DNA of 64,000 nt from Escherichia coli. GTDB taxonomy: Bacteria; Pseudomonadota; Gammaproteobacteria; Enterobacterales; Enterobacteriaceae. Location of the stretch: NCBI RefSeq assembly GCF_001677475.2, contig NZ_CP015229.1, one strand, 5' to 3'. The notes under the pieces were generated by a model, which was not told where the DNA came from, made no database searches, and saw only the letters and a list, made by a program, of their open reading frames with translations. Below are positions 11,918-60,663 of the stretch, in pieces (the stretch's first letter is position 1; each line of letters begins with the position of its first letter). The position numbers and the translations under genes are program-made.

Positions 11918-12722
11918 AGCAGCAACCTCATTGTAATCAAGCGAGGCGCTGAGCGTACTCGGCTATAGAAAAACTAACTTGCAAAAATCGCTCATTTTTC
12001 ATTTATCAGGCGAAAGTGGCCTCTGTTCACTCAGAAACAATCACTCCCGCTAAGTCATACCTGTTTCATCGATACATTTAAGTGATTATTACTAATGAAA
12101 CAATAACATAACGGGCTTACGGTCGGTGCTCATAAAGGCAACAATCAATTAACTTTGATAAAAATATGTTATGTAAAATAGCAACAAATTGGCTACTCTA
12201 ATCAATTGGTATTATAAAAAGAGGATAAGGCGGTTCTGTTAAATAAAACACTGGTTTTTTATCTATACCTTTTCATTGTAATAATTGTGTTGCATAAATA
12301 TTTCACAATAAATTAACAATAAAATCACCAATGATCTATGGTTTATACATAATTAACATATTTGGTTGGTTTTGATATAAATCAATTTTTAATTCTTGAA
12401 AAAAATCTGCAAAACACGATAAATTGTCGTAGATCAAATTGGTGAGATCGTGACAATTTCGCTATAAATTGATCACTGTCGAAAAATGCAAATTTGCTCA
12501 ATAAAAACCTGTTTATTGTAAGGATTTTGCGGCGTAATATAATTACGGGATCAATTTGGTTTATTCATTAACATATTTGTAACTTTTTTATCATTGTCTT
12601 TTCCTCTTTTGATGAAATGGCAACGATAGAGGCGAGCAAATAATTTTGTATTGGGGCATGCGTGTGACCCTTTCTAACGGGGTTCACTCTCGGAGTCTTC
12701 ATGCGATGAGCAAGGAGTCATG
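11918..12722 (+). promoter_or_regulatory. cydAB upstream regulatory region, AT-rich
   Basis: Long AT-rich non-coding region before cydA; in E. coli the cydAB promoters are controlled by ArcA, FNR and H-NS (established knowledge); individual sites not resolved by eye. Confidence 0.5.
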
Positions 12723-14291
12723 ATGTTAGATATAGTCGAACTGTCGCGCTTACAGTTTGCCTTGACCGCGATGTACCACTTCCTTTTTGTGCCACTGACG
12801 CTCGGTATGGCGTTCCTGCTGGCCATTATGGAAACGGTCTACGTCCTTTCCGGCAAACAGATTTATAAAGATATGACCAAGTTCTGGGGCAAGTTGTTTG
12901 GTATCAACTTCGCTCTGGGTGTGGCTACCGGTCTGACCATGGAGTTCCAGTTCGGGACTAACTGGTCTTACTATTCCCACTATGTAGGGGATATCTTCGG
13001 TGCGCCGCTGGCAATCGAAGGTCTGATGGCCTTCTTCCTCGAATCCACCTTTGTAGGTCTGTTCTTCTTCGGTTGGGATCGTCTGGGTAAGGTTCAGCAT
13101 ATGTGTGTCACCTGGCTGGTGGCGCTCGGTTCAAACCTGTCCGCGCTGTGGATTCTGGTTGCGAACGGCTGGATGCAAAACCCAATCGCGTCCGATTTCA
13201 ACTTTGAAACTATGCGTATGGAGATGGTGAGCTTCTCCGAGCTGGTGCTTAACCCGGTTGCTCAGGTGAAATTCGTTCACACTGTAGCGTCTGGTTATGT
13301 GACTGGCGCGATGTTCATCCTCGGTATCAGCGCATGGTATATGCTGAAAGGTCGTGACTTCGCCTTCGCTAAACGCTCCTTTGCTATCGCTGCCAGCTTC
13401 GGTATGGCTGCCGTTCTGTCTGTTATTGTTCTGGGTGATGAATCCGGCTACGAAATGGGCGACGTGCAGAAAACCAAACTGGCTGCTATTGAAGCTGAGT
13501 GGGAAACGCAACCTGCGCCTGCTGCCTTTACTCTGTTCGGCATTCCTGATCAGGAAGAGGAGACGAACAAATTTGCGATCCAGATCCCTTACGCGCTGGG
13601 CATCATTGCAACGCGTTCCGTGGATACTCCAGTTATCGGCCTGAAAGAACTGATGGTGCAGCATGAAGAACGCATTCGTAACGGGATGAAGGCGTACTCT
13701 CTGCTCGAACAACTGCGTTCTGGTTCTACCGACCAGGCGGTTCGTGACCAGTTCAATAGCATGAAGAAAGACCTCGGTTACGGTCTGCTGCTGAAACGCT
13801 ATACGCCAAACGTGGCTGATGCGACTGAAGCTCAGATTCAACAGGCAACCAAAGACTCCATTCCGCGTGTAGCGCCGCTGTACTTTGCGTTCCGTATCAT
13901 GGTGGCGTGTGGCTTCTTGCTGCTGGCAATCATCGCGCTCTCTTTCTGGAGTGTCATCCGCAACCGCATTGGCGAGAAAAAATGGTTGCTGCGCGCCGCG
14001 CTGTACGGTATTCCGCTGCCGTGGATTGCTGTAGAAGCGGGCTGGTTCGTGGCTGAATATGGCCGCCAACCGTGGGCTATCGGTGAAGTGCTGCCGACAG
14101 CTGTGGCAAACTCGTCACTGACCGCAGGCGATCTCATCTTCTCAATGGTGCTGATTTGTGGCCTGTATACCCTGTTCCTGGTGGCAGAATTGTTCTTAAT
14201 GTTCAAGTTTGCACGCCTCGGCCCAAGCAGCCTGAAAACCGGTCGCTATCACTTTGAGCAGTCTTCCACGACTACTCAGCCGGCACGCTAA
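12723..14291 (+). CDS. cydA: Cytochrome bd-I ubiquinol oxidase subunit I
   Basis: Translation [28 protein letters not shown]... recognised as CydA; start at second ATG to give 522 aa. Confidence 0.97.
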
Positions 14292-20307: not shown

Positions 20308-20853
<546 letters not shown>

Positions 20854-20862
20854 GAGAATTGC

Positions 20863-21654
20863 ATGAGCAGTAACTTCAGACATCAACTATTGAGTCTGTC
20901 GTTACTGGTTGGTATAGCGGCCCCCTGGGCCGCTTTTGCTCAGGCACCAATCAGTAGTGTCGGCTCAGGCTCGGTCGAAGACCGCGTCACTCAACTTGAG
21001 CGTATTTCAAATGCTCACAGCCAGCTTTTAACCCAACTCCAGCAACAACTCTCTGATAATCAATCCGATATTGATTCCCTGCGCGGTCAGATTCAGGAAA
21101 ATCAGTATCAACTGAATCAGGTCGTGGAGCGGCAAAAGCAGATCCTGTTGCAGATCGACAGCCTCAGCAGCGGTGGTGCAGCGGCGCAATCAACCAGTGG
21201 TGATCAAAGCGGTGCGGCGGCATCAACGACGCCGACAGCTGATGCTGGTACTGCGAATGCTGGCGCGCCGGTGAAAAGCGGCGATGCAAACACGGATTAC
21301 AATGCAGCAATTGCGCTGGTGCAGGATAAATCCCGCCAGGATGACGCAATGGTGGCATTTCAGAATTTCATCAAAAATTACCCTGATTCAACTTACCTGC
21401 CAAACGCCAATTATTGGCTGGGTCAGTTAAACTACAACAAGGGTAAAAAAGATGATGCGGCGTACTATTTTGCTTCGGTAGTAAAAAACTATCCGAAGTC
21501 ACCAAAGGCTGCAGATGCGATGTTTAAAGTCGGTGTCATCATGCAGGACAAAGGTGACACCGCAAAAGCGAAAGCCGTATACCAGCAGGTTATCAGTAAA
21601 TACCCTGGTACTGATGGCGCTAAACAGGCACAAAAACGTCTGAACGCGATGTAA
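20863..21654 (+). CDS. cpoB: Cell division coordinator CpoB (YbgF), TPR protein
   Basis: 263-aa ORF with signal peptide, coiled-coil region and C-terminal TPR repeats. Confidence 0.95.
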   Translation: MSSNFRHQLLSLSLLVGIAAPWAAFAQAPISSVGSGSVEDRVTQLERISNAHSQLLTQLQQQLSDNQSDIDSLRGQIQENQYQLNQVVERQKQILLQIDSLSSGGAAAQSTSGDQSGAAASTTPTADAGTANAGAPVKSGDANTDYNAAIALVQDKSRQDDAMVAFQNFIKNYPDSTYLPNANYWLGQLNYNKGKKDDAAYYFASVVKNYPKSPKAADAMFKVGVIMQDKGDTAKAKAVYQQVISKYPGTDGAKQAQKRLNAM

Positions 21655-21818: not shown

Positions 21819-21894
21819 GGGTCGTTAGCTCAGTTGGTAGAGCAGTTGACTTTTAATCAATTGGTCGCAGGTTCGAATCCTGCACGACCCACCA
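21819..21894 (+). tRNA. lysT: tRNA-Lys (anticodon UUU)
   Basis: 76-nt gggtcgttagctcagttggtagagcagttgacttttaatcaattggtcgcaggttcgaatcctgcacgacccacca, anticodon loop cTTTTaa, CCA encoded. Confidence 0.97.
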
Positions 21895-21922
21895 ATCGCT
21901 AAGGTGGAAGCGGTAGTAAAAC

Positions 21923-21994
21923 GTGAAGGATAACGTTGCGTCAGCAACGGCCCGAAGGGCGAGACGAAGTCGAGTCATCCTGCACGACCCACCA
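21923..21994 (+). repeat. Spacer repeat ending in a tRNA-Lys 3' fragment (tcctgcacgacccacca)
   Basis: gtgaaggataacgttgcg.cagcaacggcccg.agggcgag..gaag.cgagtcatcctgcacgacccacca recurs three times in the array. Confidence 0.7.
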
Positions 21995-22029
21995 CTAACA
22001 TAGTTAGTTGTAGTATCCAGCGTAGTATC

Positions 22030-22105
22030 GGGTGATTAGCTCAGCTGGGAGAGCACCTCCCTTACAAGGAGGGGGTCGGCGGTTCGATCCCGTCATCACC
22101 CACCA
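22030..22105 (+). tRNA. valT: tRNA-Val (anticodon UAC)
   Basis: 76-nt gggtgattagctcagctgggagagcacctcccttacaaggaggg...cacccacca. Confidence 0.97.
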
Positions 22106-22107
22106 CC

Positions 22108-22183
22108 GGGTCGTTAGCTCAGTTGGTAGAGCAGTTGACTTTTAATCAATTGGTCGCAGGTTCGAATCCTGCACGACCCACCA
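22108..22183 (+). tRNA. lysW: tRNA-Lys (UUU)
   Basis: Identical to the first tRNA-Lys copy. Confidence 0.97.
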
Positions 22184-22234
22184 CTAATTACGGTGGGTTC
22201 GGTGGAAGTAGTTTGTAGTATCCAGCGCAGTATC

Positions 22235-22310
22235 GGGTGATTAGCTCAGCTGGGAGAGCACCTCCCTTACAAGGAGGGGGTCGGCGGTTCGATCCCGTCA
22301 TCACCCACCA
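22235..22310 (+). tRNA. valZ: tRNA-Val (UAC)
   Basis: Identical to the first tRNA-Val copy. Confidence 0.97.
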
Positions 22311-22313
22311 CTC

Positions 22314-22389
22314 GGGTCGTTAGCTCAGTTGGTAGAGCAGTTGACTTTTAATCAATTGGTCGCAGGTTCGAATCCTGCACGACCCACCA
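22314..22389 (+). tRNA. lysY: tRNA-Lys (UUU)
   Basis: Identical tRNA-Lys copy. Confidence 0.97.
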
Positions 22390-22417
22390 ATTTTAACATC
22401 AAACTCAGATGTTAAGC

Positions 22418-22487
22418 GTGAAGGATAACGTTGCGCCAGCAACGGCCCGTAGGGCGAGCGAAGCGAGTCATCCTGCACGACACACCA
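22418..22487 (+). repeat. Spacer repeat with degenerate tRNA-Lys 3' fragment (tcctgcacgacacacca)
   Basis: Second copy of the spacer element, with one substitution in the acceptor-stem fragment. Confidence 0.7.
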
Positions 22488-22535
22488 ATTTTAAAGATTG
22501 GTTCCGAGTAGAAATCTTTCAGGTAACACCCGTAT

Positions 22536-22611
22536 GGGTCGTTAGCTCAGTTGGTAGAGCAGTTGACTTTTAATCAATTGGTCGCAGGTTCGAATCCTGC
22601 ACGACCCACCA
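22536..22611 (+). tRNA. lysZ: tRNA-Lys (UUU)
   Basis: Identical tRNA-Lys copy. Confidence 0.97.
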
Positions 22612-22644
22612 TCCTGAATGATTAAAGCAGCATAATCCCGCAAG

Positions 22645-22720
22645 GGGTCGTTAGCTCAGTTGGTAGAGCAGTTGACTTTTAATCAATTGGTCGCAGGTTC
22701 GAATCCTGCACGACCCACCA
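22645..22720 (+). tRNA. lysQ: tRNA-Lys (UUU)
   Basis: Identical tRNA-Lys copy, last gene of the array. Confidence 0.97.
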
Positions 22721-22724
22721 ATGT

Positions 22725-22751
22725 AAAAAAGCGCCCTAAAGGCGCTTTTTT
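22725..22751 (+). terminator. Rho-independent terminator of the tRNA operon
   Basis: aaaaaagcgccctaaaggcgctttttt: GC stem flanked by A- and T-runs. Confidence 0.85.
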
Positions 22752-22775
22752 GCTATCTGAGATATTCAAAGATTC

Positions 22776-22876
22776 GAACCTGCAGCAGGTTCGAGTTGAG
22801 CGCAGCGAAACAACGGAGCCGCTCGCGGCGACGGCCCGAAGGGCGAGCGAAGCGAGTCATCCTGCACGACCCACCA
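22776..22876 (+). repeat. Third spacer repeat with tRNA 3' fragment, downstream of the terminator
   Basis: gattcgaacctgcagcaggttcgag...cggcccgaagggcgagcgaagcgagtcatcctgcacgacccacca; T-arm-like and acceptor-like fragments without a full tRNA. Confidence 0.65.
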
Positions 22877-56654: not shown

Positions 56655-57623
<969 letters not shown>

Positions 57624-57824
57624 TTAACCTGCCAATATTGAGGATACAAACTATTTTCTTCTACCTCTAAAGGACGATGTACGCTATGACTCCCTGATGA
57701 TGTATATCAAAGTAAAACCGCCATTTTCCCTTATTCTGTAGCGAAATAGCACGATCATGACGCTATATACATGATTACATAGCGAAAGTGTAGATGGTAA
57801 AAATCACATTTACACGCTAGTATC

Positions 57825-57959
57825 GGCTTAACCACTAAACACTCTAGCCTCTGCACCTGGGTCAACTGATACGGTGCTTTGGCCGTGACAATGCTCGTAA
57901 AGATTGCCACCAGGGCGAAGGAAGAAATGACTTCGCCTCCCGTATCTGGAAAGGTGTAC
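57825..57959 (+). promoter_or_regulatory. Molybdenum-cofactor (Moco) riboswitch-like leader of the moa operon
   Basis: Long structured leader (...gcctctgcacctgggtcaactgatacggtgctttggccgtgacaatgctcgtaaagattgccaccagggcgaaggaag...) directly before moaA; boundaries approximate. Confidence 0.55.
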
Positions 57960-58949
57960 ATGGCTTCACAACTGACTGATGCATTTGCGCGTAAGTTTTA
58001 CTACTTGCGCCTGTCGATTACCGATGTGTGTAACTTTCGTTGCACCTACTGCCTGCCGGATGGCTACAAACCGAGCGGCGTCACTAATAAAGGCTTTCTT
58101 ACCGTCGATGAAATTCGCCGGGTTACGTGCGCCTTCGCCAGCCTGGGCACCGAAAAAGTGCGCCTGACAGGCGGTGAGCCGTCTTTACGCCGCGACTTTA
58201 CCGATATCATCGCCGCTGTGCGAGAAAACGACGCTATCCGCCAGATTGCGGTCACCACCAATGGTTACCGTCTGGAACGCGATGTGGCGAACTGGCGCGA
58301 TGCTGGACTTACTGGCATCAACGTCAGCGTTGATAGTCTGGACGCCCGCCAGTTTCACGCTATTACCGGGCAGGACAAATTCAACCAGGTCATGGCAGGG
58401 ATTGATGCTGCATTTGAGGCCGGTTTTGAGAAGGTCAAAGTCAATACCGTGCTGATGCGTGATGTTAATCATCACCAGCTCGAGACCTTTCTGAACTGGA
58501 TCCAGCATCGCCCTATCCAGCTGCGTTTCATCGAACTGATGGAAACGGGCGAGGGCAGCGAGCTCTTCCGTAAGCATCACATCTCTGGTCAGGTTCTGCG
58601 TGACGAGCTACTGCGTCGCGGCTGGATCCACCAATTACGTCAACGCAGCGACGGGCCCGCGCAAGTCTTTTGTCATCCGGATTACGCCGGAGAGATTGGC
58701 CTTATCATGCCGTATGAAAAAGACTTCTGCGCCACTTGCAACCGCCTGCGCGTTTCCTCCATTGGTAAACTCCATCTCTGCCTGTTTGGTGAAGGCGGCG
58801 TTAACCTGCGCGATCTGCTGGAAGACGATACCCAGCAACAGGCGCTGGAAGCGCGTATTTCAGCGGCGCTGCGGGAGAAGAAACAGACCCATTTCCTGCA
58901 TCAAAACAACACCGGTATTACGCAAAACTTATCGTACATTGGCGGCTAA
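57960..58949 (+). CDS. moaA: GTP 3',8-cyclase (Moco biosynthesis, radical SAM)
   Basis: [31 protein letters not shown] radical-SAM cluster motif; internal start (329 aa). Confidence 0.97.
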
Positions 58950-58970: not shown

Positions 58971-59483
58971 ATGAGTCAGGTAAGCACTGAATTTATCCCG
59001 ACCCGTATTGCTATTCTTACGGTTTCTAATCGTCGCGGTGAAGAAGACGATACCTCCGGTCACTATCTGCGCGATTCGGCGCAGGAAGCGGGCCATCACG
59101 TTGTCGATAAAGCCATTGTGAAAGAAAACCGCTACGCTATTCGCGCTCAGGTATCTGCGTGGATCGCCAGCGACGATGTACAAGTGGTATTGATTACGGG
59201 GGGTACTGGCCTGACGGAAGGTGATCAGGCTCCCGAAGCGCTGCTGCCGTTGTTCGACCGTGAGGTTGAAGGTTTTGGTGAAGTGTTCCGGATGTTGTCG
59301 TTCGAAGAGATTGGCACTTCCACGTTGCAATCTCGTGCGGTAGCGGGCGTCGCTAACAAAACGCTGATTTTCGCCATGCCAGGTTCGACCAAAGCGTGCC
59401 GCACCGCATGGGAAAATATCATCGCGCCGCAGCTGGATGCCCGTACGCGTCCGTGTAATTTCCATCCACATTTGAAGAAATAA
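58971..59483 (+). CDS. moaB: Molybdenum cofactor biosynthesis protein B
   Basis: 170-aa MogA/MoaB-fold ORF. Confidence 0.96.
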
Positions 59484-59485
59484 GT

Positions 59486-59971
59486 ATGTCGCAACTGACC
59501 CATATCAACGCCGCTGGCGAAGCGCACATGGTGGATGTCTCCGCCAAAGCGGAAACCGTGCGTGAAGCGCGCGCCGAAGCCTTTGTCACCATGCGCAGCG
59601 AGACGCTGGCGATGATTATTGATGGTCGCCACCACAAAGGCGACGTATTTGCCACTGCGCGTATTGCCGGTATTCAGGCGGCAAAACGCACCTGGGATCT
59701 GATCCCGCTCTGTCACCCGCTGATGCTCAGCAAAGTTGAAGTCAATTTACAGGCCGAGCCGGAGCACAATCGGGTACGTATAGAAACCTTATGCCGCCTG
59801 ACCGGGAAAACCGGTGTCGAAATGGAAGCGTTAACCGCGGCCTCCGTGGCGGCGCTGACCATTTATGACATGTGCAAAGCGGTGCAAAAAGATATGGTAA
59901 TTGGTCCGGTACGTTTGCTGGCGAAGAGCGGCGGCAAGTCGGGTGACTTTAAGGTGGAAGCGGATGATTAA
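59486..59971 (+). CDS. moaC: Cyclic pyranopterin monophosphate synthase
   Basis: 161-aa [22 protein letters not shown]... Confidence 0.96.
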
Positions 59972-60209
59972 AGTTCTTTTTTTCGCCCAGGTGCGCGAGT
60001 TGGTGGGAACAGATGCAACCGAAGTGGCTGCGGATTTCCCAACCGTTGAAGCGTTACGCCAACATCTGGCTGCGCAGAGCGATCGCTGGACGCTGGCGCT
60101 GGAAGATGGCAAATTGCTGGCTGCCGTCAACCAGACGCTGGTGAGTTTTGACCATCCGCTGACTGACGGCGACGAAGTGGCTTTCTTCCCGCCGGTAACC
60201 GGAGGTTAA
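59964..60209 (+). CDS. moaD: Molybdopterin synthase sulfur-carrier subunit
   Basis: [17 protein letters not shown]...FFPPVTGG with C-terminal Gly-Gly; internal start (81 aa), overlaps moaC end. Confidence 0.95.
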
Positions 60210-60210
60210 G

Positions 60211-60663
60211 ATGGCAGAAACCAAAATTGTTGTCGACCCGCAGCCATTCAGCGTAGGAGAAGAGTATCCGTGGCTGGCGGAGCGTGATGAAGACGGTGCG
60301 GTAGTCACCTTTACCGGTAAGGTGCGCAACCATAACCTTGGCGACAGCGTCAAAGCATTAACCCTCGAACACTATCCGGGGATGACTGAAAAAGCACTGG
60401 CAGAAATTGTCGATGAAGCGCGTAACCGCTGGCCGCTGGGGCGCGTCACGGTGATTCACCGCATCGGGGAATTATGGCCGGGCGATGAAATCGTTTTTGT
60501 CGGTGTCACCAGTGCGCATCGCAGCAGTGCGTTTGAAGCCGGGCAGTTTATTATGGATTATCTCAAAACCCGCGCACCGTTCTGGAAGCGCGAAGCCACG
60601 CCGGAAGGCGACCGCTGGGTCGAAGCTCGGGAGAGCGATCAGCAGGCGGCAAAACGCTGGTAG
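60211..60663 (+). CDS. moaE: Molybdopterin synthase catalytic subunit
   Basis: 150-aa ORF immediately after moaD. Confidence 0.96.
   Translation: MAETKIVVDPQPFSVGEEYPWLAERDEDGAVVTFTGKVRNHNLGDSVKALTLEHYPGMTEKALAEIVDEARNRWPLGRVTVIHRIGELWPGDEIVFVGVTSAHRSSAFEAGQFIMDYLKTRAPFWKREATPEGDRWVEARESDQQAAKRW

Follow-up and report, generated by a model that had tools for sequence, protein, structure and literature searches.

The structured leader upstream of moaA in this stretch of Escherichia coli DNA is, with high confidence, the molybdenum-cofactor (Moco) riboswitch known from E. coli and belongs to Rfam family RF01055. The whole 64-kb stretch analyzed here (the window) was scanned with Rfam 15 at gathering thresholds. 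RF01055, named "Molybdenum/Tungsten riboswitch aptamer, Moco RNA motif" in Rfam, matched at 57828–57972 on the + strand with 103.4 bits, about three times its gathering score of 36 (E = 1.2e-24). This was the sole Moco match within the window, and it covered model positions 1–135 of 135, so that the element is not truncated. The initial annotation had proposed a structured, Moco riboswitch-like leader before moaABCDE at this place and had set a covariance-model scan beforehand as its refuting test; what the scan returned was this significant, full-length match in the interval. Positions 57829–58000, comprising the aptamer, Shine-Dalgarno (SD) region, AUG, and the first 41 nt of moaA, are identical to K-12 MG1655, and RefSeq annotation agrees with the identification. 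Judged by its identity with the K-12 copy, the window element is the family's experimentally studied example. The riboswitch was described in 2008, is held in Rfam, and is routinely annotated in E. coli by the NCBI pipeline; as the moaA leader is identical to the studied K-12 copy, the finding is an ordinary one.

Mapping the RF01055 pairs to the window placed the aptamer and expression platform at ~57830–57966 (+), with K-12 identity and covariation as further support, and 34 of the 41 consensus pairs are standard in the window sequence. The seven non-standard pairs comprise the outermost pair of the P1 core, the 3 × 3 internal loop of P2, one pair in P3, and two beside the P4 loop. All stems are on the + strand. 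P1 (57830–57844 with 57953–57966) encloses P2–P5. P2 (57847–57883) consists of a lower helix, in which 57847–57857 pair with 57873–57883 around the 3 × 3 mismatch, and a 3-bp distal helix (57861–57863 with 57868–57870) with the loop AACU. The P2 bulge lies at the expected place of the tetraloop receptor and reads CCUGGG/UACGG, whereas the model consensus and most relatives have CCUAAG/UAUGG, so that 3 of 11 positions differ; this bulge, a putative receptor of non-canonical sequence, reads the same in K-12. The P3 hairpin (57885–57910) is formed by five pairs, four of them standard, between 57885–57889 and 57906–57910, and has a 16-nt loop. The P4 hairpin (57913–57938) bears the GNRA tetraloop GAAA at 57924–57927, as reported for the Moco RNA motif, in which P4 is closed by a GNRA tetraloop that is almost always GAAA (Regulski 2008, PMC2408646). 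The P5 mini-hairpin, CC-N7-GG, occupies 57939–57949 within the junction core GCCUCCC...GGAAAGG, where GCCUCCCGUAUCUGGAAAGG at ~57935–57954 fits the upper-case consensus positions.

Three parts of the fold share the SD region GGAAAGGUG (57948–57956, +): P5 and P1, each through its 3′ strand, and the junction. By the pair map, the AUG at 57960–57962 falls between the inner and outer P1 pairs. The features of the motif present here are accordingly P1–P5 around a multistem junction, the conserved junction itself, GAAA on P4, P3, and a platform with the ribosome-binding site (RBS) in P1, which bears out the earlier impression that the sequence appears intact. On its sequence, the P3 hairpin marks the element as Moco-type and not as the proposed P3-less tungsten-cofactor (Tuco) type. 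GGA occurs exactly twice in the leader, at the top of P4 (57920–57922) and in the SD (57948–57950), as is typical of CsrA-regulated leaders, which have at least two GGA motifs, commonly one in a hairpin and another at the SD. The motif at 57920–57922 is a candidate CsrA site, and the two motifs may correspond to the two published sites.

The element stands in the 5′ untranslated region (UTR) on the same strand as moaABCDE, directly upstream of the operon and overlapping the moaA start. The interval first marked, 57825–57959, is the 3′ part of a 396-nt intergenic region between moaA and the divergent yvcK/ybhK (56655–57563, −). It was placed correctly, but it ends too early to include the outer P1 pairs at 57963, 57965, and 57966, whose positions belong to the coding sequence. 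The description of the leader as GC-rich holds only locally, against the AT-rich promoter part of the intergenic region (57624–57827, 37.7% GC), and not against the window as a whole (51.9% GC for the interval versus 50.6%).

Downstream of the element, moaA, encoding the GTP 3′,8-cyclase, runs from an ATG at 57960–57962 to 58949 (+). Its 329-aa product scored 367.9 bits against TIGR02666 (cut-off 284) and is identical to K-12 MoaA at 325 of 329 residues without gaps. It is followed on the + strand by moaB (58971–59483), moaC (59486–59971), moaD (59964–60209), and moaE (60211–60663), each above its NCBIfam equivalog cut-off. The open reading frame track reads through the leader: a mechanical ORF of 356 aa spans 57879–58949 from a TTG and adds 27 codons before the true start. 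The annotation was right to call this N-terminal extension of moaA false, and the spurious codons (57879–57959, +) lie inside P2–P5 and P1. That the region is coding, with MoaA starting at TTG 57879 and the structure incidental, has next to no probability. The stretch from that TTG is open and in frame, but the match to the MoaA equivalog profile begins at residue 5 of the 329-aa product, no SD precedes 57879, and every E. coli annotation examined (K-12 and RefSeq) has the ATG start. MoaA homologues after related riboswitches in Shewanella, Psychromonas, Xanthomonadaceae, and others likewise begin at the equivalent Met, without the extension, and the conservation of the region is accounted for by the covariance-model match and covariation. 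An antisense ORF of 68 aa at 57755–57961 was also rejected as mechanical.

We then compared the intergenic region across E. coli. The 441 bases from 57560 to 58000 matched 5,424 of 5,426 complete E. coli genomes with 95–99.5% identity; in 5,417 genomes the match covered 80% of the query or more, and the features annotated under the matches were "riboswitch | moaA | yvcK". A 145-nt "molybdenum cofactor riboswitch" feature with the same coordinates as the RF01055 match was present in all five PGAP RefSeq records examined; in the K-12 MG1655 record, the moaA leader stretch is annotated with coding genes only. The K-12 moaA locus is otherwise alike, with the same operon, the divergent yvcK/ybhK, and FNR-like and ModE-like upstream sites. 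Five single-base differences from K-12 were found (57680, 57689, 57792, 57806, and 57828), all upstream of the proximal transcription start S1. The last of these is two bases before S1 and corresponds to model position 1, which is unpaired; only transcripts from the distal start S2 include it. Of the others, 57689A and 57806A are absent from the six other strains compared. The promoter differences from K-12 are probably without functional consequence. A comparison of seven divergent E. coli gave nine variable sites. The 264-nt promoter part holds seven of them, and the 145-nt element has the other two, both at unpaired positions. One of these two is 57828; the other, 57872, lies in the P2 bulge and varies in an O157:H7 strain. 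In this strain (2159, locus L125), a T for C at 57872 turns UACGG into the canonical receptor half UAUGG.

Several strain-level observations accompanied this comparison. In E. coli strain 774 (NZ_CP183138.1, match H15), the moa promoter match was split in two at query position 123 (window ~57682), which suggests an insertion upstream of the FNR site, possibly of an IS element. Two of the 5,437 matching places were on plasmids. The best match of the intergenic query among the 5,426 genomes was 99.5%, with none at 100%, and MoaA differs from the K-12 protein at four residues (R57C, R61S, S110N, and D175E). A single MoaA accession, WP_001295301.1, was found in five diverse E. coli genomes. The MoaA differences and the 99.5% best match indicate that the source strain is slightly off the common allele; it might belong to Shigella or to some unusual lineage.

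To examine covariation, a genome collection was scanned for the pattern GCCTCCC-N5-9-GGAAAGG, and the 80 readable loci that it returned were searched with a covariance model whose only inputs were the window sequence, the K-12 sequence, and the mapped structure. Matches at E ≤ 1 were obtained for 25 of the 80 loci, 22 of them at E ≤ 0.01; the other pattern loci are presumably chance matches or were overlooked by this single-sequence model. The sources of the relatives include Gammaproteobacteria, Alphaproteobacteria, Firmicutes, Actinomycetota, Acidobacteria, Spirochaetes, and Nitrospinota. In the resulting alignment, which was fitted to the model structure, standard pairs filled 89.5% of cells, compared with 64.6% after column shuffling and 37–47% when partners were slid by 1–3 columns. 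Changes on both sides were seen in 32 of the 41 pairs, and in P4 in 7 of 11. The covariation score was 0.463, versus 0.146 for shuffled alignments (0 of 500 shuffles reached 0.463) and at most 0.098 for slid ones. The helices therefore have the covariation support that marks the family, as read from an alignment made to fit the model. De novo folding of the alignment with RNAalifold recovered the P1 core, P2, and P4, with compensatory changes in 19 of 28 pairs, and paired P5 one column off the mapped structure; P3, which many relatives do not have, was not called by this de novo analysis. As the members were pre-selected by the junction pattern, the invariance of P5 and of the junction is uninformative.

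The gene context of the relatives is that of the class. Their first downstream ORFs encode MoaA, SBP_bac_11 proteins (molybdate/tungstate-type binding), Oxidored_molyb, xanthine-dehydrogenase-type MoCoBD, and aldehyde:ferredoxin oxidoreductase (AFOR), and association with Moco- and tungsten-cofactor-related genes is what defines the class (Regulski 2008, PMC2408646). Relatives in other phyla, among them L081 (Shewanella), L006 (Xanthomonadaceae), L013, L065, L020 (Firmicutes), and L034–L038 (Actinomycetota), resemble the E. coli element in the arrangement of P1, P2, P4, and P5, the GCCUCCC...GGAAAGG junction, the GNRA loop on P4, and the position upstream of Moco-related genes. Most of them differ from it in the tetraloop receptor, and many lack P3, as proposed for the tungsten-cofactor type, while the E. 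coli element has it. In some representatives, terminators serve as the platform instead of SD occlusion (PMC2408646). Family membership, architecture, K-12 identity, covariation, and gene context are direct observations of this study.

Absence of P3 was visible in L065, L071, L026, L020, L037, L036, L035, L046, L055, and L057, which have only 1–2 bases between P2 and P4. By Pfam assignment of the first downstream ORF, L071 and L020 are upstream of molybdate/tungstate-type binding proteins, L026 is upstream of a class III cytochrome c, and L035 is upstream of a NiFe hydrogenase small subunit; the genes after the P3-less relatives partly fit the proposed Tuco subtype. An Actinomycetota metagenome-assembled genome, STD1_74, had at least six copies of the element on separate contigs (L033–L038).

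Secondary-structure prediction, which the initial annotation had offered as a further check, was not informative when used alone. The minimum free energy (MFE) of the 145-nt element was −42 kcal/mol, against −36.0 ± 3.8 for shuffled sequences (z = −1.57; 14 of 200 shuffles were as stable), and the MFE structure differs from the consensus structure. Single-sequence folding was dropped as a criterion for these two reasons and was not counted against the element; the significance of the structure is owed to the covariance model and covariation rather than to its folding energy.

The folding calculations also gave an alternative pairing for the SD. In the ViennaRNA ensemble of the S1 transcript (57830–58010), computed under a nearest-neighbour model that takes no account of tertiary contacts, Mg2+, or ligand, the SD core at 57953–57957 was 89% paired with the 5′ strand of P2 (57853–57857) and 7% with P1, and the aptamer fold lay 9.2 kcal/mol above the MFE. 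The alternative pairing region extends over 57852–57858 with 57952–57958. The simple picture in which an open P1 equals a free SD was thus not reproduced in silico for this transcript. In-line probing of ligand-free RNA had disagreed with the model across much of P2 (PMC2408646), and pairing of the SD with the 5′ strand of P2 may explain that odd result. The calculation also hints that absence of ligand would still leave the leader closed and that CsrA would open it. A leader with three states, shut unless CsrA opens it and locked in the shut form by Moco, is highly speculative when taken jointly, as we do, with the trans-acting fragment discussed below.

Two promoters have been described for moaA: S1 (+1), activated by molybdate-ModE, and S2 at −87, dependent on FNR; the leader from S1 to the AUG measures 131 nt (PMC2408646). 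The published leader length places S1 at 57830 ± 1 nt (+), giving an RNA 5′ end of AACCAC..., and the moaA 5′ UTR cloning primer of Adams 2021, which begins at AACCACTAAACAC, is consistent with S1 at ~57830. Mapped from S1 = 57830, the published −87 start places S2 at 57743 ± 2 nt (+). An FNR-like site, ATGATGTATATCAA, lies at 57697–57710 (+), has one mismatch to TTGAT-N4-ATCAA, and is centred ~40 bp upstream of S2. The FNR pattern is not enriched in the window (five matches versus 2.9 expected), and Regulski 2008 (PMC2408646), after Anderson 2000, placed the FNR site of S2 where ATGATGTATATCAA sits; we infer that ATGATGTATATCAA is this site. Upstream of S1, a ModE-like inverted repeat, CGCTATATA-N6-TACATAGCG (57761–57784), has 9-nt arms that are 89% complementary and 6 nt apart. 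A search of the sequence for the exact-consensus ModE palindrome gave 0 matches, the site being seen only as this imperfect inverted repeat, and the palindrome is putatively the ModE site. An exact 8-nt direct repeat, TAGCGAAA, was also noted at 57739–57746 and 57780–57787, 41 bp apart. The copy at 57780–57787 makes up the right-hand arm of the ModE-like palindrome, and the other falls close to the S2 start. The repeat may represent an additional ModE half-site or be due to chance.

A candidate −10 hexamer for S1, TAGTAT, is located at 57818–57823 (+), 6–7 nt upstream of the start, and is accompanied by a weak −35, in line with a promoter that needs an activator. A generic sigma-70 scan of 57400–58100 found no promoter, neither the S1 hexamer nor S2; with activator-dependent promoters, such a scan is uninformative. 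A terminator scan of the same region found none after the aptamer, and the sole terminator-like match (57548–57561) is in or beside the yvcK start, on the wrong side.

From these positions and the published work, the most probable regulatory scheme is as follows. Transcripts from ModE-activated S1 (~57830) or FNR-dependent S2 (~57743) carry the five-stem aptamer. Its P5, its junction, and the 3′ side of its P1 together contain the RBS at 57948–57956, and outer P1 pairs flank the AUG at 57960. Plentiful Moco, or a very close late-pathway molybdopterin species, would stabilize the aptamer fold; the SD would then be sequestered and moaA translation repressed, providing end-product feedback on Moco synthesis. 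Two more layers of control have been published for this leader: CsrA is reported to bind two aptamer sites, which probably contain the GGA motifs, and to activate translation, and Rho to terminate within the poorly translated moaA ORF.

Much of this scheme comes from work on the K-12 leader, in which the RBS is within the nucleotides that form P1 (PMC2408646). In that study, a translational lacZ fusion under a constitutive promoter was repressed when the moa operon was induced and was more than threefold derepressed otherwise; disruption of P3 (M1) abolished repression, and restoration of pairing (M2) rescued it. Knockouts of moaA, mogA, modC, and moeA derepressed the fusion, but a mobA knockout did not, suggesting Moco itself or a very late intermediate as the signal. 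Because Moco is unstable, direct binding to the RNA was not testable in 2008 (PMC2408646), and a 2024 paper still called the exact metabolite regulating the moaA leader unidentified. No solved structure of the Moco riboswitch was found in our literature search. Direct ligand binding and the SD-occlusion step are modeled parts of the scheme.

The moaA leader can be set beside other leaders in which a bound factor determines how stable the SD-containing helix is, such as the CsrA-activated leader of ymdA and the thiM TPP riboswitch. Like CsrA-activated leaders and translational OFF riboswitches, it has GGA motifs in or near the SD. It is unlike ymdA and thiM in that a metabolite-type aptamer and CsrA reportedly have opposing effects through one and the same RNA domain; in addition, the thiM ligand TPP binds in vitro, whereas for the moaA riboswitch ligand binding is predicted.

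The Moco signal might instead be read by a protein, either CsrA or a Moco-binding factor docked on the conserved leader, and not by the RNA. Direct RNA-ligand binding is not reported in the literature consulted, and CsrA is reported to bind two sites within the aptamer and to change SD exposure (review PMC7652899), which fits the exact count of two GGA motifs in the leader, the second lying in the SD. The same review, however, describes CsrA as activating translation, which is not the relay of Moco repression that such a reading needs. The covarying five-stem junction is moreover kept in Firmicutes, Actinomycetota, Acidobacteria, Nitrospinota, and other groups, a spread broader than a single enterobacterial protein partner predicts, and no protein factor was known for the region, while the size and complexity of the RNA were judged aptamer-like (PMC2408646). 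We consider a protein reader very improbable.

Slightly less improbable, though still unlikely, is that the main output of the leader is premature termination or processing, by Rho or through structure, with the SD in P1 secondary. A fusion of the moaA 5′ UTR and ORF was more than 2-fold higher in rho R66S (Adams 2021), and two K-12 positions from that study fall close by when mapped to the window: an abundant Term-seq RNA 3′ end (817052) is equivalent to 57968 (+), which the gap-free K-12 alignment puts 2 nt beyond the last P1 pair, and a Rho-dependent termination region in moaA (817336, Rho score 3.0) is equivalent by coordinate mapping to 58252 (+). The 3′ end at 57968 was nevertheless scored as not Rho-dependent (1.24), the scan described above found no intrinsic terminator after the aptamer, and repression was measured with a translational fusion under a constitutive promoter (PMC2408646). 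Rho termination in an untranslated ORF is in any case the expected result of translational repression, so that the two explanations do not compete, and we infer that the Rho effect is a consequence of that repression.

Other elements in the window were recorded during the same work. A full-length CpoB/ybgF ICR thermometer (RF02782) matched at 20754–20892 (+) with 142.2 bits against a gathering score of 51; this is a known element of the tol-pal-cpoB region. Seven tRNA genes at 21819–22876 (+), five identical at 79.2 bits and two at 65.9 bits, are interleaved with three RtT repeats (RF00391), and to us the array looks like the E. coli lysT-valT-lysW cluster. A perfect FNR consensus, TTGATATAAATCAA, at 12372–12385 (+) lies ~340 nt upstream of a 523-aa ORF (12720–14291). 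We presume that it is one of the known FNR sites of the cydAB promoter, the ORF being of CydA size and putatively cydA.

The RNA 3′ end equivalent to 57968 might also mark a stable leader fragment of ~139 nt, holding the whole riboswitch and the two CsrA-type GGA sites, with a trans function of its own. We regard this as a long shot, though trans function has been shown for some other 5′-UTR-derived fragments (Adams 2021); if true, the fragment could titrate CsrA or pair with another RNA. In practical terms, the moaA leader serves as a positive control for sequence-only reading: a real riboswitch was recognized from raw sequence, and the false extension of moaA that runs through it was correctly flagged.
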